Origin: an uncultured Alphaproteobacteria bacterium
GTDB lineage: Bacteria > Pseudomonadota > Alphaproteobacteria > RF32 > CAG-239
Direction of reading: 5' to 3'
DNA: 64,000 bases
NCBI GenBank assembly: GCA_910577095.1
Contig: CAJTLY010000004.1
Coordinates: forward strand, 51,021-115,020
Part shown: in pieces, positions 14,934 to 39,595 of the stretch
Layout: each line of letters opens with the position of its first letter
How positions within the stretch are numbered: position 1 is the stretch's first letter
The notes under the pieces: generated by a model
Told to the model about the DNA's origin: nothing
Seen by the model: the letters and a program-made list of their open reading frames with translations, nothing else
Databases searched by the model: none
Program-made: the position numbers and the translations under genes

Positions 14934-14960
14934 GGCTCAGAACGTTTTCGTTTTAATTGT

Positions 14961-14993
14961 AAGGCAGCCCCAAAGGCTGCCTTATCGTTTTCT
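14961..14993 (+). terminator. rho-independent terminator (aaggcagcc-ccaaa-ggctgcctt + T-rich tail)
   Basis: 9-bp perfect stem immediately downstream of the 14511..14933 gene. Confidence 0.5.
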
Positions 14994-15190
14994 GAACGCT
15001 TTTTGACTTTTTGCTTGCCTTTCCCGCCTGAAAACGCCGCCATGCCGACATAAAATAATCCGATCGCCGTTTTCTGCCACCATATGGGCGGCATCCGCCA
15101 TCCCGAACGCGACTTTCAAAAACCCGGCAGTCCTTTACCTTTGAAGAAGAAGCTTTTTCCTTCCACCCGCAAAAAAAAATATAAAAGTTA

Positions 15191-15219
15191 TTGACTAATT
15201 AAAAAAATCCGGTTATTAA
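15191..15219 (+). promoter_or_regulatory. candidate sigma70 promoter for tRNA-Leu (-35 TTGACT, 17-bp spacer, -10 TATTAA)
   Basis: Hexamers sit about 10 nt upstream of the mature tRNA 5' end. Confidence 0.4.
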
Positions 15220-17732: not shown

Positions 17733-18005
17733 ATGAATAAATCAACAATGAATAACCAACTTAATTTAGTCATAGATGTAGCAAATAATTTAATCAAAGA
17801 AGGAAAAATAAATAGTTTTCGTGAATTTAGCTGCAAATATTTAAATAAATGCAGTAATTACCTTGGAACATTAGTTTACCAAAACAAATATCCAAGTATA
17901 GCATCTATTTTAACCTTATATCTTAAATTAAATCAGGAAAAACAGATGTCAAATTGGCAAAATAAACTGCTAGGTATATTAAAAAATTCTATTATTAAGG
18001 AGTAA
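17733..18005 (+). CDS. hypothetical protein (island cargo)
   Basis: 90-aa AT-rich ORF, tightly coupled to the following ankyrin gene. Confidence 0.3.
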   Translation: MNKSTMNNQLNLVIDVANNLIKEGKINSFREFSCKYLNKCSNYLGTLVYQNKYPSIASILTLYLKLNQEKQMSNWQNKLLGILKNSIIKE

Positions 18006-18007
18006 AA

Positions 18008-18634
18008 ATGAATGAGGGTAAAGATTATACAAGAAGAATTATAGATAATGCAGTAAGGGAAGATAGAAAAGATATCGGATATTTAGAAGATGAATTAGAA
18101 TTAATTGATATAGATGATTTATCATATTTTTATGAAGATAGGAAAAATAACATATTCAATATTTTTTTGACAAGTAAGTCATATCATTTACTTCTTCAAA
18201 TGTTAGATAGAGCCCTAATAAATCAAAATTTGAAAAATGGATATTCCTTAGCATCTGCGGTTGTTTGTAATTCAAATCTTCAACAATTTCAAAAAATCAT
18301 TGTATTAAGGAAAATGCTAAATTTAGGTTTTAATATAAATTGGAGAGATAAAAATAAAGAAACAATTTTATATCAAAGTATTAGACGAAACCTAAAAGAA
18401 ATTTCTATTTTTCTTTTAGAAAATCAAGCAAACCCCAATATTGGTAATGAGTTTAATGTTACACCTTTAATGATTGCTGGGTATAATGATATGATATACC
18501 TATCCTCATTACTAATTTATTATGGTGCTGATATAAATGCTAAAACAAAAATCAATAATTTGAGTATTAAAGATATCATAAGAGAATCAATAGGATTCAA
18601 TGTAGAAAATTTAATGACTGAATTTAATGATTAG
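18008..18634 (+). CDS. ankyrin-repeat protein
   Basis: Tandem ANK-like repeats: ...ETILYQSIRRNLKEISIFLLENQANPNIGNEFNVTPLMIAGYNDMIYLSSLLIYYGADINAKTK... Confidence 0.6.
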   Translation: MNEGKDYTRRIIDNAVREDRKDIGYLEDELELIDIDDLSYFYEDRKNNIFNIFLTSKSYHLLLQMLDRALINQNLKNGYSLASAVVCNSNLQQFQKIIVLRKMLNLGFNINWRDKNKETILYQSIRRNLKEISIFLLENQANPNIGNEFNVTPLMIAGYNDMIYLSSLLIYYGADINAKTKINNLSIKDIIRESIGFNVENLMTEFND

Positions 18635-18658
18635 AGAATTTGTTTAATTGATAAACTT

Positions 18659-18693
18659 AAAGCCTCAAGATTAGATAACCTTGAGGCTTTTAT
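18659..18693. terminator. bidirectional rho-independent terminator (aagcctcaa/ttgaggctt stem)
   Basis: Lies between the convergent genes 18008..18634 (+) and 18695..19030 (-). The stem is followed by a T-rich tail. Confidence 0.5.
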
Positions 18694-18694
18694 G

Positions 18695-19030
18695 TTACTG
18701 TAAATTTGCAGATACTTCAAATTTTACACTACCTATCTGAATTCTAATAGAATTTGGATAGAAATCTAGTAAGTAGCTATCACAATTCTTAAATTTTTTA
18801 ATTAATTTATGTAGTAATGCATAATCCGAAATAGTGTATATTGCCCTTAATTTATGTTCTTCACTTATATGATTTAAGACACTTATTGGCATTTCAATGT
18901 TTCTATACACGAAAATAATGTTATCTTCATATATCTCAATATAAAGAGTAGATTTTCTACCACCTCTTAAATTTTTAGTTATATGAGACAACTGTTTGCG
19001 TAAATCTTCTCCCAATACTTCAAATAGCAT
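18695..19030 (-). CDS. hypothetical protein (last gene of the helicase/MTase operon)
   Basis: 111-aa ORF 12 nt downstream of the helicase gene on the same strand. Confidence 0.3.
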   Translation of the reverse strand: MLFEVLGEDLRKQLSHITKNLRGGRKSTLYIEIYEDNIIFVYRNIEMPISVLNHISEEHKLRAIYTISDYALLHKLIKKFKNCDSYLLDFYPNSIRIQIGSVKFEVSANLQ

Positions 19031-19042
19031 AATAGTTCCTTT

Positions 19043-22000
19043 TTACTTAAAAACCTTATCTAAATCTTTTTCCAGAGTTCCTTTTTGAACAGAAGGTAAA
19101 GTGTCAAATAATCTTAAATTATGTTTATCAATACTCATTTTCTCATCAAAACCTAAAATATAAGCAGTTGCAATACGATAGATAATTTCTGTTGGAGCTA
19201 AACCATAAACTTGATTTGCAAAAATATGTTCTAATCTTTCTTGTTCATTTGGATATTTTTGTTTCAAATTACTGCTATTAAATAGTCTTTTTACAATTTC
19301 TGTAATGTAGAGACCTGATTTCATATATAAATCAATAAAAGTTCTATCTGAATTTTCAAAACATTCAGGACATTCTTTTTCTAAATTATCAACCATTTCT
19401 TTTACAACTTTTTTAGGAGTATAGATTTGGTTTGTTTTTTGCGGTGGAATATAATCAAATATATCTTCTATCTGTTCTTCATCAAAATAATTACTTAATT
19501 TAGTTCTTAAATTTAGAAATTCTTTTACAGAATCATTAAAGACTACTGGGTCAAATAAATTTCCAGCATAATGTTTTGTTTCACCTGTTTTATCATCTAC
19601 ATAATCCCCACCATCTCTTAAAAATCTAAATTCATCAAGAGTTATGCTGGTAACTTCCTTAAATACTTCATTTGGAATAATTGTATCAAAATTCTCTAAT
19701 GTTGTATTTTCGTCTCCATAAGCCATTAAAAATGAGGGGATTGTTCTTGAAAAACCTCTTAAATGGTCTCGAACACCTTCTTCAATACTTTTCTTTTCTC
19801 TTTGTTTAATGTCTGTTTCTGTTATTTCTACAATTGTCTTACCAGCTTCGTGAACGACTTGATTAATTGAATTCTTTAATGTTTCAGCTAGATTATTTTC
19901 AACAATAGATTTGGTTGCATCAAATTTTTGGTTAATAGCAGCTATTTCTTTTTCATTTTTTGCTTGCTTGATTTCTACATTTCTGTCTCGTTCAAGTCTT
20001 TCAATATCAATTTTATAAGAACCAAATTGTTTTTCAAAAGTTCTTTCGGCATCAGCATTTAATGTTTGAATCAGTTTCTTTTGAGCAGATTTGCTTAAAT
20101 CTTTTCCATATTCTTTTTTCGCAATTTCAATCATTGCCGAAGTTCCTATATGAAATTTTTCTTTCAAATCTTCTTTGATTTCATCAACTTCTTTTTTACT
20201 TTGAATTTCATCTTTTATTGTTTCAACTGTTTTAACTAGTTCATCTTCAATATTATTATATAATTTTTCTCCAAATATATCTGTAGCTTTACCAATAACC
20301 ATTTCCGATGGCAATTCAATTTCTCCCTCAGTATTAATATTGAGTTTATCTTTTGTTTCGGATGTAACTCCGATAGGCTCTTTTTGCGGGGTGAAATTTT
20401 GTATTATATCAATAACTTCTTTTGGAGCATTAAAGATATTACTGATATTTTGGAATAAAAAATTGCACATAAAGCCCTTACGAACAACTTCTTTTGCATA
20501 AATTTTACGAGGGATGGCAAGAACTTTTTCTGCATCAAGAGTTATCATTTCTCCTTCGTCATCTTCACCATACACGGGGAAGAAGTTAATTAACTCTCTG
20601 ATGTTTTGCTTACGGTCGTCTATACTTCCTTTACCAGCAGAAGTTGTAGTGTTTAAATCATTAGCAAATTGTTCAAAAACAACTAATGTTCGAGCAGGGT
20701 CAAAATCAAATACATAAGCATTTTCTTTACGAAATTGCTGTTGTCCATATTTAAATAAACAAGGATTCTGAGCTCTAAAAGCAGCTTGCATATATAGAGC
20801 AGGACTTTTTACATTGCTTAGCATTAATACAGCAGTCCATTCCGGCACAGTAACTCCTGTTGTTAATTGTCCAACAGAAATTGTAATTGTCTTGTCATTT
20901 TCTTTGATTGCCTTTACAACTTTATCAAAGGACTTTTGATTTTCTGTATCCTCATCTAAATTACCATCACCAGCAACTAGGACTATTTCATATTCCCTAA
21001 ATATTGGATGTTCTTTCAATTTCTTTGCTAATGCTTTGGCACTATCAACACGATTTAACAGCCAAAAAGTATGTCGTAATTCATTTCTAAGTTCTTCTGT
21101 TGAAAATGGAAATTTTGTTTGAGTGGTTAATGCTTCTAAAAATTTATCTACATCAGCATCATATTTGAATGAGCCATTTGAATTAGTGATGAAGAACTCA
21201 TTTAAATCAAATGCATAGCTTTCTGTTTCTCCATCATCATCAAAATCAGCACCTTTTTGTAGCTTATCTCTAATGATTTCAGACATTTGATAAGTATAAA
21301 GATTTAATTGAGGTAGAGTAGAATAAGGATTTTCTTCTTCTTTTGTTTCGTCCCATTCTTTTTTTGCCTTTTGTTCATCAGCATATGTCCAGTTGTATAC
21401 AGCTTTTTCTTCAAATTTTGAATTAGCCAAAGCTCTAAAAGGAGTTCCTGATAAATGAAGAGTATATTTCCTTTTTATATTATCAAAAGCAACATCAGCC
21501 CTATATGTATCAATACCTTCGTGAGACTCATCAATAATCAACAAATCCCATTTTAATTGGGCAATATGCTTTAATTTGTCATATTTTCCACCAAAATCTA
21601 TTGCACCTTTAAGGTCTTGTAATGATATAAATTCTATATATTTTCTTGCTGAGGGTGGTAAATTTTCTCTTTTTACAACACAAGGTTTGTTTTTTAGTGT
21701 ATCAACCTGACTAACAAAAAAGTAACCAGATTGAGTTCCAAAAAATTTTTCATAATCACTATACCACGAGGTTGCAATAGCTGGACGATGTGTAACTATT
21801 AGAACTGTTTTAGCATCTAATTGTTTACATAAATCATATGCTGAAAGAGTTTTACCAAATCGAGGTTTTGCATTCCATAAAAACTCAGGCTCATCATCTG
21901 CATATTGTTGAAAATATGATTTTGCTTGCTGCACAGCTTTTTGCTGTTCTGTTCTTAATTTATATTCTATTACGACATCTGTTTGAGCAATTCCTCTATT

Positions 22001-22336
22001 TGCCCTAAATTCATCGAATCGTTGCTTGGATGTTTGAGGTAGGATATGAAACCATTCTGTTCCTATTTTTCTCTCAATTCCAATTTTTTTCAAATAACAA
22101 TGAAAATCAGTATCGTGAAAAATATCTCCTGAACCATCATCATATATAGCATTGGCTTTCCACTCTATTTTATACTCTATATCAGCAGTTTGGGTTTGTT
22201 GCCTAACACGAGTTTCAACATCTTGTTCTGTAAAGCCTATCTTAGTCCAACCATTATGAGTAGCAATTTGAGGAGTAGTGTAGGCATAACACATAGGTAT
22301 TACTTTTTTGCTTGTCTTGATGTTGATTTTAGCCAT
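19043..22336 (-). CDS. GIY-YIG-like (T5orf172/MUG113) nuclease domain fused to an SF2 helicase; putative restriction/defence enzyme (Type III Res-like role)
   Basis: N-terminal GWTKIGFTEQDVETRVRQQ (T5orf172-type GIY-YIG core). Walker A NAKPRFGKT, DExH box LLIIDESHEG, motif III LSGTPF. Long C-terminal region of about 500 aa. Immediately downstream of the MTase ORFs on the same strand. Confidence 0.6.
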   Translation of the reverse strand: MAKINIKTSKKVIPMCYAYTTPQIATHNGWTKIGFTEQDVETRVRQQTQTADIEYKIEWKANAIYDDGSGDIFHDTDFHCYLKKIGIERKIGTEWFHILPQTSKQRFDEFRANRGIAQTDVVIEYKLRTEQQKAVQQAKSYFQQYADDEPEFLWNAKPRFGKTLSAYDLCKQLDAKTVLIVTHRPAIATSWYSDYEKFFGTQSGYFFVSQVDTLKNKPCVVKRENLPPSARKYIEFISLQDLKGAIDFGGKYDKLKHIAQLKWDLLIIDESHEGIDTYRADVAFDNIKRKYTLHLSGTPFRALANSKFEEKAVYNWTYADEQKAKKEWDETKEEENPYSTLPQLNLYTYQMSEIIRDKLQKGADFDDDGETESYAFDLNEFFITNSNGSFKYDADVDKFLEALTTQTKFPFSTEELRNELRHTFWLLNRVDSAKALAKKLKEHPIFREYEIVLVAGDGNLDEDTENQKSFDKVVKAIKENDKTITISVGQLTTGVTVPEWTAVLMLSNVKSPALYMQAAFRAQNPCLFKYGQQQFRKENAYVFDFDPARTLVVFEQFANDLNTTTSAGKGSIDDRKQNIRELINFFPVYGEDDEGEMITLDAEKVLAIPRKIYAKEVVRKGFMCNFLFQNISNIFNAPKEVIDIIQNFTPQKEPIGVTSETKDKLNINTEGEIELPSEMVIGKATDIFGEKLYNNIEDELVKTVETIKDEIQSKKEVDEIKEDLKEKFHIGTSAMIEIAKKEYGKDLSKSAQKKLIQTLNADAERTFEKQFGSYKIDIERLERDRNVEIKQAKNEKEIAAINQKFDATKSIVENNLAETLKNSINQVVHEAGKTIVEITETDIKQREKKSIEEGVRDHLRGFSRTIPSFLMAYGDENTTLENFDTIIPNEVFKEVTSITLDEFRFLRDGGDYVDDKTGETKHYAGNLFDPVVFNDSVKEFLNLRTKLSNYFDEEQIEDIFDYIPPQKTNQIYTPKKVVKEMVDNLEKECPECFENSDRTFIDLYMKSGLYITEIVKRLFNSSNLKQKYPNEQERLEHIFANQVYGLAPTEIIYRIATAYILGFDEKMSIDKHNLRLFDTLPSVQKGTLEKDLDKVFK

Positions 22337-22341
22337 AGTTC

Positions 22342-23328
22342 TTACTCCATAGGTTTAATCATAGTTTCAATGAAATCTATTTCTTCTTGGGTCAAACCAT
22401 ATTTCTTGTAAAGTTTCTCGTCAGTCCAAGATTCGTTAAAGTTTAGCCAAGGAACAAATTGGAAATTATTTATCGAAATATTCATCCCTGATAATGTTTG
22501 TAAAATCAAAAATCTAACAAATTTTGTCCTCAAATAATGATATATATTTTCTGTTTGTTCTTTATTTGTTGTTGGGCATATAATTAAATAGGATTGGTTA
22601 CAAATTTGATTAGGTTTTAATATTTCCATTCGACTTAAAACACGATACATTCCATTTTTATCAGGATTTCCAGCGTGCTCACAAGATAATTTTGAAATCA
22701 TAGTTTTATATAGGTCAATATTGTTTTTACCTTTTTCTACTTTGTTCCTTTCAACAAAGCCCCAACCTTTACTACTTACTATTTCACAGTCATCACCATT
22801 GGTTTTTTGGTCTGTTCCCTTAAAAGTTGATAAAAAACCAAAAGGAGTTTGGGGGCTACATCCTCCATCGTTTGATAGAAAGTTATTAGTAGAATTGGTA
22901 ACTTTATTAATTATAGAAATAGCCTCATTTCTTCGGATAAAGATTTTATGTTCATTTAATTTTCTTGAATATAATTTTCTTCCATTTTTATTTACACTAG
23001 TAAATTTGCATAATCCTTTATAAGCCTTATTCCAAAGGAAATAACAAATTCCTCCATTGATATCTACATTAGGAAAGCAATAATTCGAATCTATAAAATC
23101 TACAATTGTTTGAATTCTATCATCATTTAACATTTTTTCTCTAAAATCATCTAAGCCAACACCTCCTGAAAACCATCTGGCCGGAATAATCATTGTTAAT
23201 GCTGAAGGATTAGATTTTAAAGCTTCATCTACAAATTTTTGATAAAGGGGAATTGCTCCTAGACCTTTTCCAGCTTCATTAACTTGCATTTGATATGGAG
23301 GATTTCCTACAATATAATCAAATTTCAT
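22342..23328 (-). CDS. N6-adenine DNA methyltransferase, catalytic motif IV (NPPY) part
   Basis: Begins MKFDYIVGNPPYQ... Its ATG overlaps the stop of the upstream ORF (ATGA). Confidence 0.6.
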   Translation of the reverse strand: MKFDYIVGNPPYQMQVNEAGKGLGAIPLYQKFVDEALKSNPSALTMIIPARWFSGGVGLDDFREKMLNDDRIQTIVDFIDSNYCFPNVDINGGICYFLWNKAYKGLCKFTSVNKNGRKLYSRKLNEHKIFIRRNEAISIINKVTNSTNNFLSNDGGCSPQTPFGFLSTFKGTDQKTNGDDCEIVSSKGWGFVERNKVEKGKNNIDLYKTMISKLSCEHAGNPDKNGMYRVLSRMEILKPNQICNQSYLIICPTTNKEQTENIYHYLRTKFVRFLILQTLSGMNISINNFQFVPWLNFNESWTDEKLYKKYGLTQEEIDFIETMIKPME

Positions 23329-24407
23329 TTTTTATTTCCTTTCAAAAGGTAAAATTCAACAGCACCACTTTTATCTCGCCAATTTTTTATTTTGCAAAAC
23401 ATTGGAGGGTTGCTTTTCGGTAAATTGTTAAAAAGCTCTAATTGTCTGTCATCTTCATTGGAATCGCTAAAAGGAGCTGTATCTGTAAGCCCATCCATCT
23501 GCCAAATGTTCCACGCAATTACATTGGCTATTTGTTTGATTTGTGTTAGTGTTGGTTGTCTTTTGTGTTTGAATTTAAAGTTATCAATAAATGTCCAAAG
23601 AAGATTTTCTCTTGCTAAAAGCAAGTTATCTCCTTGGTATTCATAGCCATAAGTGGCTTCATATGCTCGTTTTGCCCAATTAAACCAATCTGTTTCATTT
23701 GTTGTATTTTCATTAACTATGCGAAGTTTTCTATCTAAAAGACCAATTCTTTTCTCTATTGGCAAAAACTCTCCGGTAGTTGTGTCATATCTGGAAACAA
23801 GATAAGGTGCTTCACCACAGGTTATTTCTAATCTTTTTGAATCAACATATTTCATCCAACCTTCTTTTTTGCTTTTCTTATCTTCTGCAAATTGTATAGG
23901 TTCTGTTGTTGGTATCCAATCGTGACCATTTGGGGTATTAAATACATTGGAATAACCAAACCATTCTTCATCACAATGGTTGTTCATTTCATTACAAATC
24001 CAAGAAGGAGTAAAAACCTCAGCCGATTTACGAGTTCTGTTTATTTGTTCATCTTTGGTTTTTGATATTCTTGGTTGGATTATTCTAGTGTTATCTTTGG
24101 TAATAAGTTCCGGAAGTATTTCTTTTTCAGCAGTATAGGCTTCTCCATATTTGGCATATTCATCACAAGCAAAACGAATGTATTTTCCGGTTGTCTTATC
24201 TTGAAGCAAGATTTTTAATAAAAAAGGACTAAGTTCTTCAATATCTTGCTCTAATATATCAATGTCTTCATCTTTTGATGCTGTAACATCATCTTTATAA
24301 TCTTCTAAATTGTAAATTTGAGCATATGAATCCCATCCCCTTACTTGTTTGCTTAAGGGTGTTTCTTTTTCTAATAGTGATATATTATTACTGACACATT
24401 CTAACAC
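23325..24407 (-). CDS. N-terminal partner/segment of the DNA methyltransferase (motif X-like VFTPSWI; degenerate motif I-like LEITCGEAPYL)
   Basis: 360-aa ORF ending ...GNKK* in an A6 tract directly before the next ORF's ATG. Combined length with the next ORF is about 689 aa, typical for Type III Mod proteins. Confidence 0.45.
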   Translation of the reverse strand: MLECVSNNISLLEKETPLSKQVRGWDSYAQIYNLEDYKDDVTASKDEDIDILEQDIEELSPFLLKILLQDKTTGKYIRFACDEYAKYGEAYTAEKEILPELITKDNTRIIQPRISKTKDEQINRTRKSAEVFTPSWICNEMNNHCDEEWFGYSNVFNTPNGHDWIPTTEPIQFAEDKKSKKEGWMKYVDSKRLEITCGEAPYLVSRYDTTTGEFLPIEKRIGLLDRKLRIVNENTTNETDWFNWAKRAYEATYGYEYQGDNLLLARENLLWTFIDNFKFKHKRQPTLTQIKQIANVIAWNIWQMDGLTDTAPFSDSNEDDRQLELFNNLPKSNPPMFCKIKNWRDKSGAVEFYLLKGNKK

Positions 24408-24422
24408 TGGGCTAATTCACCA

Positions 24423-24600
24423 ATTAACCCACCCTATTTTAGGGAATACTCATTTAAAATATTAATTTTGTGGGAATATGCTTATTTTCAAAGCATAAGA
24501 TAAGATTCTAATTGATTATTTTAGATTAATTTGTATGATATCAGAAGCGAGATAATTAATTGGTGAATTAATTATCTCGCTTATTTTTTTATGTATTTTT
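24423..24600. promoter_or_regulatory. inverted-repeat region between the MTase operon and the invertase gene: 15-bp IR (taattcaccaattaa ... ttaattggtgaatta) plus a perfect 15-bp-arm hairpin and a T-run
   Basis: IR copies at 24423-24437 and 24566-24580. Hairpin gcgagataattaatt-ggtg-aattaattatctcgc at 24557-24590, followed by ttattttttt. Confidence 0.45.
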
Positions 24601-24628
24601 GTTCAATCTGATAAATATTTAAAAAGGA

Positions 24629-25231
24629 TTGAATATGATATATGGATATATAAGGGTTAGCACACAAACTCAGGTCTTAGAGAACCAAAGATTAGCAATT
24701 TCAACATATTGTGAAGCAAATAATATAGAAATTAATAAGTGGGTAGAAGAAAAAATATCTTCAAGAAAACCTCTAAAAGAAAGAAAACTAGGCAAATTAC
24801 TCAAAAAGCTCAAAAAAGGAGATATCTTAATTGCATCAGAACTAAGTAGGCTTGGGCGTAATTTGTTAGAAGTTATGGGTATTTTGAAGGAATGTTTAGA
24901 AAGAGAGTGCCAAATATGGACATTAAAAGAGAACTATCGTCTTGGTTCTGATATCCAAAGCAAAGTTCTTGCTTTTGCTTTTAGTTTGGCTGCAGAAATA
25001 GAAAGACAACTTATTTCTGAAAGGACAAAAGAAGCTCTAAAAAGAGTTAAGGCAGAAGGAAAGCACCTAGGTCGTCCTTTCGGTCGTAAAAGTGCTTTCA
25101 ATGATTTAAAGAAAAATAAAGAGCGAATTCTACAATTGGCAGAACAAAATATTCCTAAAACACAAATAGCCAGAATGTTTAAGGTTGATAGAAGCACTAT
25201 TAGAAGGTTTATAAACCAACATAAAGATTAG
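24629..25231 (+). CDS. small serine recombinase (DNA invertase/resolvase family) with C-terminal HTH
   Basis: MNMIYGYIRVSTQTQVLENQ... (catalytic Ser), ...GKHLGRPFG..., C-terminal HTH ...KTQIARMFKVDRSTIRRF... Confidence 0.75.
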   Translation: MNMIYGYIRVSTQTQVLENQRLAISTYCEANNIEINKWVEEKISSRKPLKERKLGKLLKKLKKGDILIASELSRLGRNLLEVMGILKECLERECQIWTLKENYRLGSDIQSKVLAFAFSLAAEIERQLISERTKEALKRVKAEGKHLGRPFGRKSAFNDLKKNKERILQLAEQNIPKTQIARMFKVDRSTIRRFINQHKD

Positions 25232-25247
25232 AGAAATAGTGCATTAA

Positions 25248-25808
25248 CTATCTTTTTTTCAAATAACTGTAAACTGTAGGTCTAGTGATTTTAAATTGTT
25301 TTGCAATCCGAGAAATAGGCATTCCTTGACTATGCATATTATTTAATTCAGTAATTTGCTCACTACTTAGTTTGTTTTTTCCACCTTTGTATTTCCCTTT
25401 AGCTTTTGCTATTGCAATACCCTCTCTTTGTCTTTCTAATAGAATAGCCCTTTCAAGCTCTGCAACAGCTCCTAACATAACCATCATCATTTTTTGATAG
25501 GGGTCTTGTTTTTCATTTTCCTTAAAAGTCAGGTTTTCTTTATGAAAAATAATAGTAGCTCCTTTTGAGGTTATTTTTTCTACAAGATTCAATAAATCAC
25601 GAGTGTTACGAGCCAAGCGACTCATCTCGTGTATGTTAATGATATCGTTTGCCCTAATATTTGCCAACATTGCTTGTAACTGAGGACGATTGGTATCTTT
25701 ACCACTAATTTTTTCTTCATACACTCTGTCACAAGCAACATCTTTTAGTTGTCGTTCTGTGTTTTGCTCAATTGAAGAGACTCGTATATAATTAAATATC
25801 ATTGCCAT
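25248..25808 (-). CDS. small serine recombinase (resolvase/invertase family)
   Basis: MAMIFNYIRVSSIEQNTERQ..., ...GKYKGGK..., HTH ...ISRIAKQFKITRPTVYSYL... Convergent with the previous recombinase, 16-bp gap. Confidence 0.75.
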   Translation of the reverse strand: MAMIFNYIRVSSIEQNTERQLKDVACDRVYEEKISGKDTNRPQLQAMLANIRANDIINIHEMSRLARNTRDLLNLVEKITSKGATIIFHKENLTFKENEKQDPYQKMMMVMLGAVAELERAILLERQREGIAIAKAKGKYKGGKNKLSSEQITELNNMHSQGMPISRIAKQFKITRPTVYSYLKKR

Positions 25809-25814
25809 ACCTCT

Positions 25815-25906
25815 TAATGTAAAATCTATATTTAAGAATATATTTTACAATTGTAAAATCGTCAAGTAAAATAATTTAGATTTTACACTTTTGTAAATGT
25901 AAAAAC
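25815..25906. promoter_or_regulatory. res-like site: cluster of TGTAAAAT-type half-sites including a perfect 18-bp palindrome attttacaattgtaaaat upstream of the resolvase gene
   Basis: Copies at 25819-25827, 25842-25859 (palindrome), 25877-25887 (inverted) and 25893-25906. Three-subsite organisation over about 90 bp. Confidence 0.4.
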
Positions 25907-26024
25907 AGGGTATGCTTGGGTTTGTCAATTTAAATGAAGAGTTATAAGGGAATAAATTAATTCTATAGACTCTTTGGTATATTATAATATAATTGTTCCA
26001 TCAAAATATTGTATGAGGTATTTT

Positions 26025-28328
26025 ATGGTTGCAATTAAATCAATTAAAGAAATTAAAAATTTTGCATCTTTTGAAAATTTCGATGCCTCCATATCTCCAT
26101 ATAAAAATTTTCAAAAGTATAATATATTTTATGGATTAAATGGCAGTGGAAAAACAACTTTATCAAGATTATTATCATTTTTAAATGTAGGGAAAATACC
26201 TGATGATGAAGAAAGCAAAGAACAGTATCAAGATTTTAATCAATTGAAATTTAAAATAGAACTTGATAATGATGATATTGTTACGGTCTTCGATAATAAC
26301 CAACTAATAAATAAAATAAGAGTTTTTAATTCTGATTTTGTTAGTAGAAATGTAAAATTAGAAAAAGCAACAACTAAATCACTAATCTATAATATTAGCG
26401 AAAAATCAGATAAATTAAAAACAAAAAGAAAATATTATGAAAAAAATATATCTTATTGGCATAACAAAGATAACCAGTTAATTATAGATAAAAATATAGA
26501 AGAAAAAGATAAGATTCTTCAAAATAAATACCAAGATTTAGCAAGGGAAATAAAATACCTATTAAATTTATCAAATAGTTTTAACAAAAATTCTGTTAAA
26601 GACTTATTTAATCAACTTACTCAATGCAAAGAATTATCTGATGAAGAATTTCAAAAATTTGTTGCTATTTCTAAACAAGATGAAAAATATCTACTCGATA
26701 TTAATTTTGATAATTTAAGTGTTAATAGTCTGAAAAAAGATGAATTTGATGAATTGAAGAAAATTTTATTAACAAAAAAGACCAGAAATACAGGAGAAAA
26801 AGAAACTGTAATTAATTGGATATCAGATGGGTTGAAAATACATCAAAATGACCACACCAAATGCAAGTTCTGTTCTCAAGAGATACATCACGATTTTTGG
26901 AAAACTAGATTAAGTGAGATAGAACAGATTTTAAAAAAAGATATTGAATTTGAAACATTTGAACAAAATATAAGACAAATTATAAATAGACTAGACAATA
27001 AAATAAGATTTATAGATACATTTGATGTTAATATTACTAGCAATCAATTTTTGATACAATATCAAAAACAAGCTGAGTTGATTCTCTGCAAAATTAAAGA
27101 ATTGAAATCCCAAAGCAGACAATCACTTGAAATTATAAAATCATTATTTGAGAAAAAGTTATTTCAATTAGATGAGGCTATCGTTTTAGAAGATAGTGTT
27201 TTTGATTTGTCATATTTTTCAGAATGTAAAAAATTAAATCTTCTTATTCAGAGTAATAATATAGAATGTAATGAATTGAGTAAAATTAAAGAAGATGCTA
27301 AAAATAAAATTATTTCTTCTATATTATTTCCTCATATGGGAGAAGTGGCTAGAATAAAAAGCTATTTGGCAAAAGCTAATACAACAAAAGTTATGATTGC
27401 AGATAGAATTAGTAATTATCAAATAAAATTAGCTACTATTATAAAAGAATTAAATAATCAAAAAGTTGCTATAAATGAGATTGAAAACATTTGCGAACAA
27501 ATTTTTGGATATAAGAAATTTTCTTTTACTTTTGATGAGAATCTTAAATCGTATAAAATTACTAGAACTGGTAAAACATCTGCAAGAAACATCAGTGAAG
27601 GAGAACAAACAGTAATAGCATTTGCATATTTTATAGCTTGCTTAAAAGAAGGTAATTTTAACAGAGAAGAAGGGATTGTTGTTATAGATGACCCAGTATC
27701 AAGTTTAGACCAACAATATCTTTTTAATATTTACGTGGTGTTAATGAGAGAAGTTTTAAAGGAGAATTTGTGTTCTCAGGCATTTATTCTTACTCATAAT
27801 TTTTATTTTTTTAGAAAAGTACGAAATTGTTTAAAAAATATTTCTAAACTTAAGGATGAAACGAAAAAACAAACTTATGAAAATACATATGTTTCTGTTT
27901 ATTCTATTGAGAAAACGAATGGAAAAAGTGTTATTAAAGATGCATCAAAATATTTATTAAATTATGAAACAGAATATTTACATTTAATAAGAAAATTAAA
28001 TAAAGACCTTGTAGAAGCAGATAATGAATTTTCAGATGTGGGAGTTGGCAATGCTATTAGACAAGTGTTAGAAATATTTTTATCATTTAAATGTCCTGAT
28101 AAAAATAATCTTTTTACTAGATTTCAGAATGTAACTCCCAAACCAGATAAAAAATTTAAATATTTATATGATTTGGTAAATTCAATGAGCCATACAGATG
28201 AAATAGATACAGAAGTTGTAAACGGTGCTTATAAAAGGATTGCAGGAAAAAGTGACATCCAAGAGCTATTTGATTTTATCAAAGAAATTGATGCAGAGCA
28301 TTATGAAAAAATCAAAAAAATTGTTTAG
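26025..28328 (+). CDS. RloC-like ABC/AAA_13 ATPase with coiled-coil CxxC zinc hook; putative anticodon-nuclease-type abortive-infection protein
   Basis: Start chosen at MVAIKSIKEI with a GAGG SD 7 nt upstream. Walker A YGLNGSGKTTLSRL. CxxC HTKCKFCSQE inside a long coiled-coil insertion. Signature/D-loop VVIDDPVSSLDQQYL. About 767 aa. Confidence 0.5.
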   Translation: MVAIKSIKEIKNFASFENFDASISPYKNFQKYNIFYGLNGSGKTTLSRLLSFLNVGKIPDDEESKEQYQDFNQLKFKIELDNDDIVTVFDNNQLINKIRVFNSDFVSRNVKLEKATTKSLIYNISEKSDKLKTKRKYYEKNISYWHNKDNQLIIDKNIEEKDKILQNKYQDLAREIKYLLNLSNSFNKNSVKDLFNQLTQCKELSDEEFQKFVAISKQDEKYLLDINFDNLSVNSLKKDEFDELKKILLTKKTRNTGEKETVINWISDGLKIHQNDHTKCKFCSQEIHHDFWKTRLSEIEQILKKDIEFETFEQNIRQIINRLDNKIRFIDTFDVNITSNQFLIQYQKQAELILCKIKELKSQSRQSLEIIKSLFEKKLFQLDEAIVLEDSVFDLSYFSECKKLNLLIQSNNIECNELSKIKEDAKNKIISSILFPHMGEVARIKSYLAKANTTKVMIADRISNYQIKLATIIKELNNQKVAINEIENICEQIFGYKKFSFTFDENLKSYKITRTGKTSARNISEGEQTVIAFAYFIACLKEGNFNREEGIVVIDDPVSSLDQQYLFNIYVVLMREVLKENLCSQAFILTHNFYFFRKVRNCLKNISKLKDETKKQTYENTYVSVYSIEKTNGKSVIKDASKYLLNYETEYLHLIRKLNKDLVEADNEFSDVGVGNAIRQVLEIFLSFKCPDKNNLFTRFQNVTPKPDKKFKYLYDLVNSMSHTDEIDTEVVNGAYKRIAGKSDIQELFDFIKEIDAEHYEKIKKIV

Positions 28329-28331
28329 GTT

Positions 28332-28988
28332 TTAGTTTTTTACAAAATCTCTCATAGCTTCAATTAATTCATCAAAATTGGTAGAGGGTCTTATTCTCCA
28401 ATCTCCTAATTTGGAATTGTTTGTTCTTAATTTTTTAGCCCTTGAGATAGCTTTATCTTCATTATCATTAACCAGCATTAAATCTATATCAAACCTTTTG
28501 TTGGTTTTTGCATTATATCTAGGAAGATATATTTTTAATTCTTTTTCCAACTCATTTTTGGTGGTTGGTGTTTTATCTGAAAAATGCATCAAAGCCCACA
28601 ATTCAACAGACCTATTAGAACAAATGACTTTAATATTATTGTCTTTTGCTTCCTCAAAAGCCTTGTCAAAATTCTCTTTATCTTTCCCTCCTATGCTTCT
28701 ATCATCTTCATCAAACACAGCATAAAAAGTATCTAAATAATTTTTTGCTGGTTTCTTTGCTTCAATTAAATTTTCAACAATTTTTAAAGGTTCCGATTCA
28801 TATTTTGAAGCCACAATTTCAAATTTAGTCATAGCTTTAATATGATTTACACCATTTTTAGCAGCAAAATTTCTAATCCAATCAGTTAAATATTGTGGTT
28901 CAGTTACATCACCTTCGGTAAAAATAACCATTTTGGAAGCACTTCTTTCTTTTCTATTGTGCCTATTTTTTCTATCTAAACTAACCAT
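28332..28988 (-). CDS. RloB-like/TOPRIM-like protein (AbiLii/AriB-type partner)
   Basis: ...MVIFTEGDVTEPQYL... matches the RloB N-terminal 'vcEGekTEpnYf' motif. A DxD-type acidic motif AVFDEDD is present. Immediately downstream of the ATPase gene with a 4-nt gap. Confidence 0.65.
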   Translation of the reverse strand: MVSLDRKNRHNRKERSASKMVIFTEGDVTEPQYLTDWIRNFAAKNGVNHIKAMTKFEIVASKYESEPLKIVENLIEAKKPAKNYLDTFYAVFDEDDRSIGGKDKENFDKAFEEAKDNNIKVICSNRSVELWALMHFSDKTPTTKNELEKELKIYLPRYNAKTNKRFDIDLMLVNDNEDKAISRAKKLRTNNSKLGDWRIRPSTNFDELIEAMRDFVKN

Positions 28989-28991
28989 TAG

Positions 28992-30272
28992 CTATTCCTT
29001 TGCTTCCAAAATATTAGCTAATTCATTAATATCTCCCAAATATGGAATTGCTCCGAATCTGCCCTCTAAATAGCCTTTTTCATAATTAAAGCCTTCTCTG
29101 ATAGCCTTAAATTCAGTTAAAGGATAAACCTCAGAACATCCTTCTTCATTCTTTTCAACAAACCAAATTTCATCTCTCTTGAGAATATTTGATTTAAGGA
29201 TGGAAGTATTATGAGTGGTAAAAATAAGCTGTGCCCCACCAATATTAATATTGGGGTTATTAAACATCTCAACAATTTTAGCCAGCATCATCGGATGTAA
29301 CTTTTCTTCAAGCTCATCAATAATATAAATTCCACCACCAACTAAAATTGGAACAAACATAACCAAGTATTTTGCAAACTGCCCAGTCCCCCAGCTTTCT
29401 GAAGAAATAGGTAATTCATACTTTTTATTGTTTACCCCAATATGTTCAAAGTTAATTTTATAATGTTTTCCGGTTGGAGAGGTAGTAAAAGGTAGTGCAG
29501 ATGAATCTTTTTCTTCTTCAACTTTAATATCTGTAATTCCCAAATCTGCATATTTAATTAACTCAACAACTTTCTTATGCAAGGATTTGTCCTGATAAAT
29601 CTTTTCTGCCAAGCTATCCATATTAAACATTGTTTCTAAGATATTTATAAAAGTAACCTTACAAATATCTTTTAAGGCCTCAAAAATATTATGAATATAA
29701 GAAATTCCTCTTGTATCCAAAATATCAAGAACAAGCAAATCCTGTCTTTTGCCTAAAGAATCTTCTATATATTTAATATCAAATTTTGATATAATTTCTT
29801 TGTATGGTTTGTAAATATTGCTTTCAACTCTATCATAAATGACTTTTTTATTTTTATTCTGATATTCTGTTAAGTTTTCTGTCAGTATTCCTGTTTTATC
29901 AAAGCTAAATGATAAAATATATCTAATATCATCAAGACAGAAGTCTATTTCTATAGATGATGGTCTTGATGCAGATTCGTCATCTAATAAAAATGGCTTA
30001 TAAAATTCAAATGATGGTTTACTATCTGTTTTTCCTAACAAAGGCAAGACAATATCATTAAACACTTTAACAATATTGCTCTTTCCGGAAGCATTGGCTC
30101 CATAAAATGCAGTAACAGGAGTAATCAAATCATCTCCAATAGCATTAACTCTTCTAATATAAGATGTCGGGGTATTGCTATATTTAGATTCCGCTGTAAA
30201 AAATATTTCCTGTTCATCTTTAAACGACAAGATATTTGCAAATTTAACTCTTAATAAATTTACTTTAGCCAT
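28992..30272 (-). CDS. AAA_21/ABC-type ATPase (AbiLi/AriA-type)
   Basis: Start chosen at MAKVNLLRVKF with a GGAG SD. Walker A GANASGKSN. Walker B/D-loop IYIIDELEEKLHP. ...LIFTTHN... (H-loop). Confidence 0.65.
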   Translation of the reverse strand: MAKVNLLRVKFANILSFKDEQEIFFTAESKYSNTPTSYIRRVNAIGDDLITPVTAFYGANASGKSNIVKVFNDIVLPLLGKTDSKPSFEFYKPFLLDDESASRPSSIEIDFCLDDIRYILSFSFDKTGILTENLTEYQNKNKKVIYDRVESNIYKPYKEIISKFDIKYIEDSLGKRQDLLVLDILDTRGISYIHNIFEALKDICKVTFINILETMFNMDSLAEKIYQDKSLHKKVVELIKYADLGITDIKVEEEKDSSALPFTTSPTGKHYKINFEHIGVNNKKYELPISSESWGTGQFAKYLVMFVPILVGGGIYIIDELEEKLHPMMLAKIVEMFNNPNINIGGAQLIFTTHNTSILKSNILKRDEIWFVEKNEEGCSEVYPLTEFKAIREGFNYEKGYLEGRFGAIPYLGDINELANILEAKE

Positions 30273-30472
30273 TTTTTTGCTCCGGCAGTTGTTGTTTGTA
30301 ATCAAAATATAGAAATAAAAAGCAAAAAAATCAACACTTTTATTTAAAATTCGTAAAAAAATTACAAATTTTTATAAAAAACATCATTTTTTTTGATTTT
30401 ATTTTTGCAAATACTCTTAAAATAATGTAATATACCAAACATAAAATAACACTATTTATTAGGAGAAAAAAT

Positions 30473-30856
30473 ATGTCTGAAATTAAAACTCAAGAAGAAT
30501 TTGAAGCAAAAATAAATGATTTGGTTGATAAAATTAATAATGCTCCAACCAATTTAATAAGAGGTGACTTATTGGAGTTATGGGATGATTGCAGAGAAGC
30601 AGTATACTTTTGTCCTGAAAATGGCTATGGTCCTATCTATACAGAGCTCAGAGCTATTCCAGAAAATAATAAATTTTCTGAAATATTAGTATATATAAAA
30701 TCAGAATATTATCTGTTTTTGGAATTGAGAGACAATCTTGTCTATAAACCGATGTCATTTCTTGAAACACTAAGCTATGTTTGTGATGAGTATATATATC
30801 ATTTAAGGAATTCCTTTGAAGCAGCAGAAAGAGAACGAGAAAGAGAAAAAGCTTAG
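30473..30856 (+). CDS. hypothetical protein (island cargo)
   Basis: 127-aa ORF with AGGAG SD upstream. No motifs recognised. Confidence 0.3.
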   Translation: MSEIKTQEEFEAKINDLVDKINNAPTNLIRGDLLELWDDCREAVYFCPENGYGPIYTELRAIPENNKFSEILVYIKSEYYLFLELRDNLVYKPMSFLETLSYVCDEYIYHLRNSFEAAEREREREKA

Positions 30857-31115
30857 TTATGTATTCTGTTTTTTTGATATAATTATAAGCGATAATCGAC
30901 GCAAAATTTGCGGAGAATATGATGATTATTATCCGCAAGTCACTATATTTTAATTATTGCCACTCATTTATTACATTGGTCTCATCAACTATAGAGTTCA
31001 ACAATTCGTCAACTTTGGTGCACCATAACTCAAAACCCTCCCTTGCGGAGGGTTTTGAGTTATAATAAACCTCACTATTCCCTCTTCGTTCAATATAAGA
31101 TACTTTTTTCACAGC

Positions 31116-31148
31116 AAAAAGCCTCCCTTGGTCGGGGAGGCTTTTTTT
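31116..31148. terminator. bidirectional rho-independent terminator (A5-gcctccc-ttggtcg-gggaggc-T7)
   Basis: Serves the minus-strand gene 31180..31410 and plus-strand island genes. Confidence 0.55.
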
Positions 31149-31179
31149 AAAGAAGACATTGACTGTCTTATGATCATGT

Positions 31180-31410
31180 TCACGAAGCGGCGGAAGCAGT
31201 TTTCCGGTACAGGCATTTTCCGTTAAGATCCATACCGATCACTTTGGTTCCGATCCCGCGCAGGAAGTGGAGGGTAATCTCGTCTCCGGCTTCGGGTTTT
31301 CCATACTTCTTCTCCAGTCCGAAATGCATGATTCCGCCGGTAGGGTCTTCAGCGGTGATGCTCCACTTGTTTTCGGACATACTCTTCACTTTTTGAACAG
31401 TTATTTCCAT
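31180..31410 (-). CDS. hypothetical small protein
   Basis: 76-aa ORF in host-GC DNA, with a terminator downstream. Confidence 0.35.
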   Translation of the reverse strand: MEITVQKVKSMSENKWSITAEDPTGGIMHFGLEKKYGKPEAGDEITLHFLRGIGTKVIGMDLNGKCLYRKTASAAS

Positions 31411-31596
31411 ATTGTTGGTAATTAAAATAATAAAACTCTGCCTAAAATGTACAAAAAAAGTTTTTTTATGTCAAGCAATTATCTTCGTCGATTGACATTT
31501 TTCAGCCTGCCGCCGCCTCTCAATGCCAAACGTGCTTCTGGATCGGCGAACGGTATTTATATGGACATCGGCAATTTTTTTGCTTATATTATAATT

Positions 31597-32637
31597 ATGA
31601 CAGAATATCGTTTAGCCGCATCACTCCTCAATTGGTACCGACATCACGGACGCAGCCTGCCCTGGCGTGTCAAAGGCGGCGCTCATCCCGATCCTTACGT
31701 TGTTTTGGTTTCCGAATTTATGCTGCAGCAAACCACGGTCAAAACCGTACTCGATTATTTTGCCCCCTTTATGCGGCGTTTTCCAACCGTCGAAAGCTTG
31801 GCCGCGGCCGATTTGGAAGAAGTTTACCGCTATTGGCAAGGGCTGGGTTACTATACGCGGGCGCGCTCTTTACATATCACGGCGCAGACGATTGTCAAAG
31901 ATTTCGGCGGTCGCTTTCCGCAAACCCGCGAAAATGTGCTCAAGCTCAAAGGGATCGGCGCCTATACCGCATCCAGCTTTCTTGCCCTCGCCTTCAACCT
32001 GCCCGAGACCGTTATTGACGGCAACGTTATCCGCATTATCTGCCGTCTGTACCATTTGACAGCTCCGGTTGCAGAAATCGAAAACCTCATTCGTGAAAAA
32101 GCACAAACTCTCACCGATGCGCAACATCCGGCCGACTATGCTTCGGCAATTATGGATCTGGGTGCCGTTATCTGTACCCCCAAAAAACCGCAATGTCTGC
32201 TTTGTCCCTGGCAAAACGCCTGTTTATCCCGCGGCCTGCCGGAACTGGAACGAATTCCCGACCGTGCCAAACCGGCTAAAAAAGAAAAAAACGGCAGCGT
32301 TTACCTGATTTTTAACACCGCGGGCCAAATCCTGATTCGGAAACGTTCGGAAAAAGGGCTTCTTTCCGGTCTCTACGAGTTCCCCTGGACCGACGAAGGC
32401 ATGCTTGAGTTTAACGGGGCCGCAGACAGCGGAGAAACGGTTTCCCATATTTTTACCCATATACGCCTCAACCTCAAAATATATATCGTCCATACGGACG
32501 CTTCGCCCGTTGCTGACGGACAGTTCGTAAATATCGGAGAACTGTCCGGCTACCCATTCTCAACCTTAATGAAAAAAGTTTACGCCAAATCGTTACCGGC
32601 GGGGTCCGCAGCTTCCGACGTTTCCCCATCATCTTAA
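31597..32637 (+). CDS. mutY: A/G-specific adenine DNA glycosylase
   Basis: Start at MTEYRLAASLLNWYRHHGRSLPWR. HhH-GPD region. Fe-S cluster Cys motif CTPKKPQCLLCPWQNAC. C-terminal NUDIX-like domain. Confidence 0.8.
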   Translation: MTEYRLAASLLNWYRHHGRSLPWRVKGGAHPDPYVVLVSEFMLQQTTVKTVLDYFAPFMRRFPTVESLAAADLEEVYRYWQGLGYYTRARSLHITAQTIVKDFGGRFPQTRENVLKLKGIGAYTASSFLALAFNLPETVIDGNVIRIICRLYHLTAPVAEIENLIREKAQTLTDAQHPADYASAIMDLGAVICTPKKPQCLLCPWQNACLSRGLPELERIPDRAKPAKKEKNGSVYLIFNTAGQILIRKRSEKGLLSGLYEFPWTDEGMLEFNGAADSGETVSHIFTHIRLNLKIYIVHTDASPVADGQFVNIGELSGYPFSTLMKKVYAKSLPAGSAASDVSPSS

Positions 32638-38381: not shown

Positions 38382-38696
38382 TTATCGCTTCCAGCCTTTC
38401 ATAACCGAACGCACAAAGTCCGCATACTGTCGCAGATCGGGCAGGAACCACAACAACAGGGCAAAAACCAACATTGCGCCGGAAATGTAAAAACTCCACA
38501 GCGGAATCTCTACAAACAGCCAGACCAGACCGGCACCGACATGTGCAATTGCCGTATATTCATACAGTTTTTTTGCACAAACATAGCAAACATGCCAGCC
38601 GCCGGACCACCGGTTGTCACTCAACTGAAAAACTAAAGTGACAAAACCGAATATGAACGCCAGCATAAAGCAAATAAGCATCATCACAAAGTTCAT
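38382..38696 (-). CDS. hypothetical small membrane protein
   Basis: 104 aa, three predicted TM helices. Confidence 0.4.
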   Translation of the reverse strand: MNFVMMLICFMLAFIFGFVTLVFQLSDNRWSGGWHVCYVCAKKLYEYTAIAHVGAGLVWLFVEIPLWSFYISGAMLVFALLLWFLPDLRQYADFVRSVMKGWKR

Positions 38697-38769
38697 AGGC
38701 TTTAATTTTTAAATAATTCTTCAACGTTTGTAATTTTAGACACAAAAATCATAAAAAGCAATAATTTTT

Positions 38770-39260
38770 TAAAATCGTTCCTTCTATCCGTCGATTCCAA
38801 CCGCCCTTTTTCCCCATTCCCGCTTGCTCTTCCCCTTCTTCTCTGCCCCTTTTTCTCCGTTTTTCTTTATCTTCCCCTTTACTCTCCATCCCTTTCCTCC
38901 CTGCCTGCCCACCACCGTCTCTCCTCTACCTATTTCCTTTGTCTGACAGCCGTTTTTCTCCGTTTACCGTCACTTATTCTCTTCTTTTTCTGTTCTTCGC
39001 CTCCTTCAGCCCCTGTCCTCTTTTCAGTTTTCTCTCCTCCTGTCCGCCGCTTGTCTCAACCTTCCGCCGCCCCTGTCCTCGTTTTCCGCCTTTTTCCCTT
39101 ATCGTCGTCGGCCGTTTTTCCCTTTCCCTGCTTCCCCCTTTTCTCCTCCCCCACTTACCGTCTCCTCTCTTTCCGCTTGTTCCCTCTCCCCTCTTTCTTT
39201 TCTGCCTTTTCTACGCTTTTTTCGCTCTCTTTCCCAACTTTCCTCCTTTGTCTCTCACTG
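38770..39260. repeat. ~490-bp polypyrimidine (plus strand) / polypurine (minus strand) tract with degenerate internal repeats
   Basis: The plus strand is almost exclusively C/T over about 490 bp (e.g. ccccttcttctctgcccctttttctccgtttttctttatcttcccctttactctcc...). The degenerate unit gcccctgtcctc(g)ttttc recurs at 39011 and 39071. It lies in the intergenic space between the PFOR 3' end and the 38382..38696 gene start. Confidence 0.6.
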
Positions 39261-39552
39261 GCGCAAATTTCTGTCCGCATTATTTTTTGTTGTCATAACC
39301 GCCCAAGCATGATATTTTTCCCACATCAAAAATTATCCTGACACTATTAACTCTAAAACATTAAAAACATGACCGTACAAACTCTCATTCTGCTGACTGT
39401 CATCGTCATACTGGCCGTCATATGCCTCTGCCAGTTTGTAATCATCCGCAGACAAAGAAAAGAAATCAGACAATACAAAATCGAACAGTATGTCTCTTTC
39501 TCCCATCATTAAGCGTAGTGGCCGACACACAACGTCCGCCGTTTTAAAAACT

Positions 39553-39582
39553 AAAAAAGCACCTCCGAAGAGGTGCTTTTTT
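39553..39582. terminator. bidirectional rho-independent terminator (A6-gcacctc-cgaa-gaggtgc-T6) downstream of the PFOR gene
   Basis: Perfect 7-bp GC-rich stem flanked by A and T runs. Confidence 0.55.
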
Positions 39583-39595
39583 ATTGTGGGTTGGC

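Follow-up and report, generated by a model that had tools for sequence, protein, structure and literature searches.

What kind of element is a stretch of almost five hundred nucleotides in which one strand is made up mostly of C and T, and does it do anything for the bacterium that carries it? The question is raised by positions 38770-39260 of a 64,000-nucleotide (nt) stretch of contig CAJTLY010000004.1 (assembly GCA_910577095.1, uncultured Alphaproteobacteria bacterium), which at its full length we call the window. The tract lies between the gene for pyruvate:ferredoxin oxidoreductase (PFOR) and an open reading frame (ORF) for a membrane protein of 104 amino acids (aa). The original prediction, made from the sequence alone, saw in it an almost pure, mirror-like polypyrimidine/polypurine tract that could form H-DNA or triplex structures or be transcribed as a purine-rich RNA. 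The comparisons described below lead us to favour, with moderate confidence, a plainer answer: the tract would be a young, lineage-restricted, non-coding and purine-skewed spacer of minisatellite-like character (cryptically simple DNA), driven by slippage and having at most a role at the level of its composition.

The compositional anomaly is real and is unique within the window. Over the 491 nt of the region the + strand is 84.3% C/T (A32 C205 G45 T209; C 42%, T 43%, G 9%), and the maximal-scoring segment, 38804-39256, is 86.1% pyrimidine on the + strand, which makes the - strand the purine-rich one (G 43%, C 9%). The richest 490-nt window reaches a pyrimidine fraction of 0.847, which is 6.4 standard deviations (SD) above the 64-kb mean of 0.521 (SD 0.051), while the maximum found elsewhere in windows of that size is 0.657. 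The runner-up purine or pyrimidine segment in the 64 kb is only 43 nt long and scores 23, against 138 for the tract. The claim of a C/T-rich region of about 490 bp is therefore sound, but the description "almost pure" is not, because 77 purines interrupt the + strand, about one per 6 nt, and the three longest uninterrupted pyrimidine runs measure 24, 22 and 18 nt. A nearby replication origin or terminus was considered and rejected: the GC skew of the + strand is uniformly negative across the window with no switch at the tract, and DnaA boxes do not cluster.

The possibility of an assembly or sequencing artefact, which had been raised with the original prediction, has in our judgement a negligible chance of being correct. 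Three of the compared contigs (L002, L005 and L009) end or turn into unrelated sequence within the tract, a sign of the difficulty it poses to assemblers. The first ~100 nt of two of them (L002:1-110 and L005:1-125) do not match the locus, and L009 breaks at its position 1; the L002 and L005 joins are probably chimeras formed via shared low-complexity k-mers. Against an artefact stands contig L001, which comes from an independent run and assembler and whose 672-nt intergenic region is identical to that of the window. Several projects, on human as well as mouse gut, have yielded homologous tracts in NCBI, ENA and Logan assemblies, and the assembly index has 81 blocks that list the exact 104-aa protein.

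The tract is restricted to a narrow group of relatives. In a scan of the genome collection the 104-aa gene turned up in just two further genomes of species level, those of uncultured Alphaproteobacteria bacterium MGBC160833 (L003) and uncultured Azospirillum sp. UMGS149 (L004); both carry a tract of ~375 nt with 85-88% purine at the equivalent position. These three close lineages, the only ones in which a tract was found, share PFOR, nagA and nagB at ~96% nucleotide identity and are 10-17% divergent at four-fold sites. Further out, L011 and L012 (NagA 84% identical) have a homologous 102-aa gene upstream of nagA with neither the tract nor a PFOR neighbour, L017 and L018 (PFOR C-termini 85-88% identical) pass from PFOR directly to the next gene with no tract, and the loci examined in L013-L015 contain no tract. 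A blastn search ('distant' mode) with the tract against plasmid and phage collections gave no match. The original prediction had proposed a search for conservation in related genomes. The length ranges from 216 to 514 nt among close strains and the tract is missing from the next lineages, so that its own description of a refuted case, a tract absent or variable in close relatives, largely describes this locus.

A sister lineage, represented by L016 and L019 (PFOR C-terminus 93-95% identical), has a different terminator after PFOR and then, on the same strand, a G-rich repeat (L016:6290-6516 and L019:3530-3780; 41% G, 64% purine) inside which both contigs end. This repeat has a period of ~146 nt (75 nt at 91%) and contains the motif (C/G)GGAA 13 times against 2.1 expected, at a spacing of 8-30 nt. 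Its comparison with the window tract gave only matches of 8-16 nt with E > 0.2, and homology is not claimed.

Within the three tract-bearing lineages, the length of the tract changes by tandem duplication. The L004 lineage carries a head-to-tail 139-nt unit in 1 copy (L020, 216 nt), 1.9 copies (L004 and L026, 375 nt; 95% identity in L004) or 2.9 copies (L027, 514 nt; 97% identity), and the NagA proteins of L020, L026 and L027 are 98-99% identical to that of the window. L003 and L010 are identical apart from a 49-nt tandem duplication. L008 has flanking genes 99.9% identical to those of the window (1 difference in 461 four-fold sites), but 5 substitutions, an insertion of 4 nt and a tandem duplication of 14 nt set its tract apart. 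Point changes are also frequent, bearing in mind that high mismatch counts in low-complexity alignments may be partly misalignment: between the window and L003 the tract has 69 mismatches in 348 positions compared with 116 in 904 four-fold sites (Fisher p = 0.002), and between the window and L004, where the tract is barely alignable, 157 in 367 compared with 98 in 620 (p ~ 1e-20). Selection on the purine class through an excess of transitions was considered and rejected, because transitions and transversions stand at 48:21 in the tract and 75:41 at four-fold sites (p = 0.52), a similar ratio that leaves no detectable extra protection of the purine class. On this evidence the tract evolves as fast as neutral sequence or faster, through point changes as well as through duplications and deletions of the slippage type.

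The same length changes bear on the question of coding. The indels between strains measure 4, 14, 49 and 139 nt, none of them a multiple of 3, so every frame is shifted and no reading frame is preserved. A low-complexity protein (rich in Ser, Pro, Leu and Phe if read from the + strand, or in Glu, Lys, Arg and Gly if read from the - strand) could be suspected from the 119-aa and 96-aa ORFs that stand open on the + strand and from gene callers that occasionally call ORFs in the tract (L009, L026). Open frames are what the composition dictates here: stop codons cannot arise in pyrimidine-rich DNA, and each of the three + frames has 0-1. Of the 24 purine-strand frames examined (three for each of 8 sequences), 22 contain 2-6 stops and two contain a single one; the tract ORFs have no Pfam matches, and no gene was called within the tract in L001. 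A protein-coding reading is effectively refuted, and the original prediction was right to treat these ORFs as low-complexity artefacts.

The internal organization of the tract was searched for repeats and symmetry, and motif counts were judged against mono- and dinucleotide shuffles of the tract. The unit gcccctgtcctc(g)ttttc, said to recur about every 60 bp, does form a pair at a spacing of 60 nt, but exactly two occurrences exist in the window tract; a periodic array of ~60 nt was ruled out by this number together with an unremarkable autocorrelation at lag 61. Tandem Repeats Finder reported only two micro-arrays (14 nt x 2.2 and 11 nt x 2.3). Perfect mirror repeats with arms of at least 8 nt and a spacer of at most 8 are absent from the tract (shuffles average 1.9), and imperfect ones (arms of at least 12, at most 2 mismatches) number 11 against 7.0 +/- 4.2 in shuffles. 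Mirror symmetry is thus not above that of shuffled sequence, and the mirror-like character on which the proposal of H-DNA or triplex formation had rested is lost. On the - strand, the 453 nt contain 33 GGA (33.8-35.7 expected from composition), 13 GGAG, 7 AGGAG and 5 GGAGG, and neither these motifs nor GGGG nor G-quadruplexes exceed compositional expectation (z -1.3 to +0.8). Two words, CGG (14 vs 7-9) and GAAAA (14 vs 7-9), are mildly high against the shuffles. The conserved border motif TTGGAATYGACGGA recurs elsewhere in the 64-kb window at chance level.

RNA structure gives a similar picture. For 644 nt of - strand RNA the fold energy is -79.5 kcal/mol (z = -1.1), and an Rfam search up to E <= 1 on the window region, L003, L004, L016 and L019 returned chance-level matches only, one of them on the PFOR terminator hairpin. 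Purine-only sequence cannot form hairpins, and a GGA is found in a hairpin loop only at the border of the tract, where a small terminal hairpin has fold energies of -5.3 to -2.9 kcal/mol in the sense orientation and 0 to -1.7 in the antisense. One of its pairs varies, from C-G (window, L003) through U.G (L020) to U-A (L004); in the alignment of 4 distinct sequences 100% of the cells pair and 1 pair is changed on both sides, with a shuffle control that is not significant. A terminator scan found no canonical terminator after the tract on the purine strand. The sole upstream promoter candidate for that strand, TTGGGC-16-AATAAT, is weak, was found by eye and was not reported by the promoter scan; it lies in a stretch deleted from the L003/L010 lineage, and therefore no upstream promoter is conserved. 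With no sequence, reading frame or RNA fold maintained, any role of the tract would have to be at the level of composition or length.

The reading that we favour can be put as follows. The tract would fill the spacer between the terminator-promoter region shared by PFOR and a 47-aa ORF on one side and the promoter of the 104-aa gene on the other. That it grows, shrinks and turns over by tandem duplication and deletion of segments rich in purine is shown by the 14-, 49- and 139-nt duplications and by the one to three copies of the longest unit among strains; these events would run via slipped-strand mispairing or unequal recombination. The strand bias would persist without selection, because purine-rich sequence is copied from purine-rich sequence, the majority of point changes are transitions, which keep the base class, and the clade is young, so that retention of 85-90% purine does not by itself call for selection. 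If there is a role, it would be that of an unstructured spacer of variable length parting two promoter regions. Bacterial minisatellites, or variable-number tandem repeats (VNTRs), are the loci used for strain typing, and the tract resembles them in being non-coding and intergenic, in carrying a 139-nt unit at x1, x1.9 or x2.9 as well as 49- and 14-nt duplications, and in changing faster than its flanks. It is unlike them in that the tract of the window is degenerate, cryptically simple sequence with no clean array, and typical VNTRs do not have its extreme strand asymmetry (86% purine over 450 nt). The tract fits bacterial VNTRs or cryptically simple DNA, and is unusual among them in strand purity and length.

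Several observations weigh against this reading. A tract of 450 nt at 86% strand purity is far outside anything in the rest of the window (138 vs 23 in segment score), and slippage alone leaves the origin of the first purine-rich seed unexplained. All three lineages keep 85-90% purine despite heavy turnover, and the high mismatch counts may, as said above, be partly misalignment. PFOR, the 104-aa gene and nagAB invariably have the purine strand as their sense strand, an arrangement that selection on an RNA would predict likewise, and the border hairpin folds on the sense strand only and shows the C-G / U.G / U-A series. Finally, A residues recur with a period of ~10-10.5 nt (several periods having been tried), with peaks at 10.5 nt in the window (p = 0.016), 9.8 in L008 and 10.0 in L004 (both p < 0.002, the L004 value being inflated by its 139-nt duplication) and no significant signal in L003, and the phases of A runs cluster in the tract (Rayleigh p ~ 0.006). 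None of the hints of residual function (strand polarity, hairpin, A phasing, and a composition that would be ideal for Rho loading in a + strand RNA and the reverse in a - strand RNA) is strong; taken together they make a role at the level of composition conceivable, be it as unstructured purine-rich RNA, as curved or rigid spacer DNA or as a barrier against antisense transcription.

The features of the locus are collected in the table below.

Table. Position and description of the tract, its internal and border features and the neighbouring genes and sites (window coordinates)
Feature	Position	Strand	Description
Core tract	38804..39256	-	453 nt, 86% purine on - (A197 G193 C40 T23); maximal-scoring segment and base counts
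Copy pair of unit gcccctgtcctc(g)ttttc	39000-39024 and 39060-39084	+	25 nt, 80% identity, 60-nt spacing; repeat search
Micro tandem array, 14 nt x 2.2	38827..38857	+	Tandem Repeats Finder; the 14-nt tandem duplication of L008 is at or near the equivalent position
9-bp hairpin, 3' tract border (purine-sense strand)	38769..38800	-	UUGGAAUCG, a 14-15-nt GGA-containing loop, then CGAUUUUAA
PFOR, 1193 aa	39596..43177	-	Pfam POR_N, PFOR_II, POR, EKR, Fer4; upstream of the tract
Bidirectional intrinsic terminator	39552..39583	both	14-bp stem with T runs on either side; common to PFOR (-) and the 47-aa ORF (+)
47-aa hydrophobic/basic membrane ORF	39369..39512	+	44/47 residues identical in the L004 lineage
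Promoter-like site for the 47-aa ORF	39290..39318	+	TTGTCA-17-TATTTT, TG upstream; kept in the L004 lineage as TTGCCA
Promoter-like site	38737..38765	+	TAGACA-17-AATAAT, 10/12 consensus matches only; faces into the pyrimidine-rich strand
Candidate promoter of the 104-aa gene	38733..38761	-	TTGCTT-17-TAAAAT; read from the sequence; TTGCTT-16-TAATAT in the L004 lineage
104-aa multi-pass membrane-protein ORF	38382..38696	-	follows the tract directly on the purine strand

The gene order on the - strand is PFOR, tract, 104-aa membrane-protein ORF, nagA and nagB. The original prediction had correctly placed the tract between PFOR and a small membrane-protein gene, but had left out the 47-aa ORF (39369-39512) and the terminator (39552-39583) that stand between the tract and PFOR. 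From the tract to the 104-aa gene runs a block of ~100 bp of AT-rich sequence that all the relatives have conserved, and in it the opposed - and + promoter candidates share 33 bp (38733-38765), the -35 element of one overlapping the -10 element of the other. The promoter scan did not report the candidate for the 104-aa gene because its -35 hexamer matches at only 3/6 positions. Judging from this arrangement, the tract would most simply be placed between two back-to-back promoter regions and not inside a demonstrated transcript. The 47-aa ORF, a hydrophobic helix followed by a basic tail, has no Shine-Dalgarno sequence and is type-I-toxin-like by appearance. In the L003/L010 lineage (remaining ORF region at L003:5402-5520) one deletion removes its 5' half together with the first ~130 nt of the tract. 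The 104-aa protein belongs to a family of only 4 clusters at >=82% identity; its comparisons gave 88% and 82% protein identity against 92-95% nucleotide identity, with a four-fold divergence of only 7-9% and a 2-residue C-terminal indel. The protein thus changes fast for its nucleotide divergence, which suggests weak constraint.

Close strains also differ in the genes between the membrane gene and nagA, where a gene with a lysozyme domain and a 285-aa gene (1-2 copies) come and go. These extra genes, absent from the window, lie between a 106-aa membrane gene and nagA (L020:1484-3356; L021-L023:510-3356; L026/L027:1607-3356) and encode a lysozyme-domain protein of 316 (or 275) aa (PF00959; PHROG endolysin, 4e-14) and the 285-aa protein in one or two copies. 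With a lysozyme beside a small membrane protein, the arrangement is reminiscent of a holin-endolysin pair, here next to genes of N-acetylglucosamine catabolism. The neighbourhood appears to be rearrangement-prone, as seen from this gain and loss of genes, from the deletion in the 47-aa ORF and from the adjacency of PFOR, which is non-ancestral (it is not found in the next lineage).

Three alternatives that give the tract a function have to be weighed against the spacer reading. One of them, which we consider unlikely, holds that the - strand is read through from PFOR, or from a weak promoter, into a long, unstructured, Rho-resistant and purine-rich RNA that acts by its composition. Such an RNA could, as a sponge or decoy, sequester a protein that binds GGA or purines (CsrA-like, or the distal face of Hfq), act as an anti-Shine-Dalgarno decoy for 30S subunits, or form a leader of the 104-aa gene and nagAB, and the repeat copy number would set its capacity. 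The purine strand is indeed the sense strand for all the flanking - strand genes, its base composition is the reverse of a Rho-loading site, its fold is weak, and its sense-only terminal hairpin carries a GGA in the loop and one compensatory pair. The 33 GGA, 13 GGAG and 7 AGGAG of the tract would also suit an organism that uses GGAG-type ribosome-binding sites, and the distinct G-rich repeat that follows PFOR in L016 and L019, with (C/G)GGAA at 13 vs 2.1, lies on that strand too. Sponge RNAs of the CsrB/RsmZ type are a few hundred nt long with dozens of GGA motifs, as is the tract, but here the GGA count is what composition gives and, apart from the border hairpin, the motifs do not lie in hairpin loops; unlike those RNAs the tract has neither a conserved promoter or terminator of its own nor a match in Rfam. 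The weak upstream promoter candidate is deleted in L003/L010 and no canonical terminator follows, sequence conservation is lacking, and the 104-aa gene has a conserved candidate promoter further downstream than the tract, so that the tract need not be part of its mRNA. Searches by tblastn for csrA (with the Escherichia coli and Bacillus subtilis proteins) and for hfq found neither gene in the 64-kb window and the compared loci, a result that is uninformative for the whole genome. The more specific idea that a purine-rich RNA titrates 30S subunits or a purine- or GGA-binding chaperone, at a dose set by repeat copy number, we regard as distinctly improbable; if it were true, the tract would specify a fast-evolving sponge RNA of uncultured gut Alphaproteobacteria, defined by its composition, and the GGAA-rich repeat of L016 and L019 would be a functional analogue. 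Our search of the literature on long bacterial homopurine tracts and purine-rich sponge RNAs found nothing comparable.

It is also rather improbable that the tract works as DNA, that is, as a rigid or curved purine.pyrimidine element, or one prone to triplexes or R-loops, which sits between back-to-back promoters and absorbs negative supercoiling, binds nucleoid proteins or tunes the promoters. The tract does lie between promoter-like sites (39290-39318 on + and 38733-38761 on -), and the A periodicity and the clustered A-run phases given above, as well as the enrichment of GAAAA (14 vs 8.6), would agree with such an element. Published work associates homopurine strings with rigid non-B DNA and with binding of HU (PMC2843746); for triplex motifs it describes a link with local rearrangement (PMC4666352), which fits the plastic neighbourhood. 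On the other hand, without mirror symmetry and with clean runs of at most 24 bp canonical H-DNA is unlikely, the periodicity is missing in L003, inflated by duplication in L004 and drawn from several periods tried, the L003/L010 lineage has lost the 47-aa gene and its promoter yet keeps the tract, and lengths of 216-514 nt mean that no fixed geometry is kept. H-DNA mirror repeats (PMC4060949, PMC7015867) pair a purine strand with a pyrimidine strand, as does the tract, but the tract has no mirror symmetry above chance, is interrupted about every 6 nt and has a longest clean run of 24 bp. Intrastrand triplex motifs linked to genomic instability are short, conserved, multi-copy and G/C-rich (PMC4666352); the tract shares with them a purine/pyrimidine bias and a locus rearranged among close relatives, but is single, long and non-conserved. 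The homopurine octamers over-represented in prokaryotes are dispersed 8-mers, with nothing longer than 8 nt in excess (PMC2843746), and the likeness of the tract to them is in its A-rich strings, A4-5 tracts and GAAAA-type words. Very unlikely, lastly, is a function of the + strand, whose C-rich, G-poor RNA would be an ideal Rho-loading (rut) substrate silencing antisense or divergent transcription toward the 47-aa ORF and PFOR, or the leader of the 47-aa ORF. A rut site needs at least ~80 nt of C-rich, G-poor and unstructured RNA. The + strand RNA of the tract would have these properties, as do the rut regions connected with Rho and antisense transcription (PMC5909445), but the likeness is compositional only and the tract is five times longer than needed, when ~80 nt would be enough. 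The promoter-like site at 38737-38765 (10/12 matches) faces into the tract and the 47-aa ORF has no Shine-Dalgarno sequence, both as this idea would have it; against it, the 47-aa ORF is served by a promoter-like site in a better position, downstream of the tract, the ORF has been deleted in one lineage where the tract persists, and the bidirectional intrinsic terminator already shields PFOR.

Elsewhere in the window, positions 14000-32000 form a low-GC island (23-39% GC vs ~49% in the flanks). It contains genes for serine recombinases/resolvases, a ResIII helicase-type restriction subunit beside an Eco57I-type methylase fragment, AAA_13 and AAA_21 (Abi-like) ATPases and an ankyrin-repeat protein, and from this gene content it looks like a mobile defence island.

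The locus has some practical consequences. The tract can be used as a strain-resolving length marker for an uncultured gut lineage, and it is a site at which metagenome assemblies recurrently break contigs and form chimeras. It also makes the case that composition alone should not be taken as H-DNA or non-coding RNA. If the purine strand were found to be an abundant RNA, it would be an unusual regulatory RNA defined by its composition, with a dose that varies with repeat copy number. As analysed here, the tract has little functional import and is a clean example of low-complexity DNA arising and churning in a compact bacterial genome.

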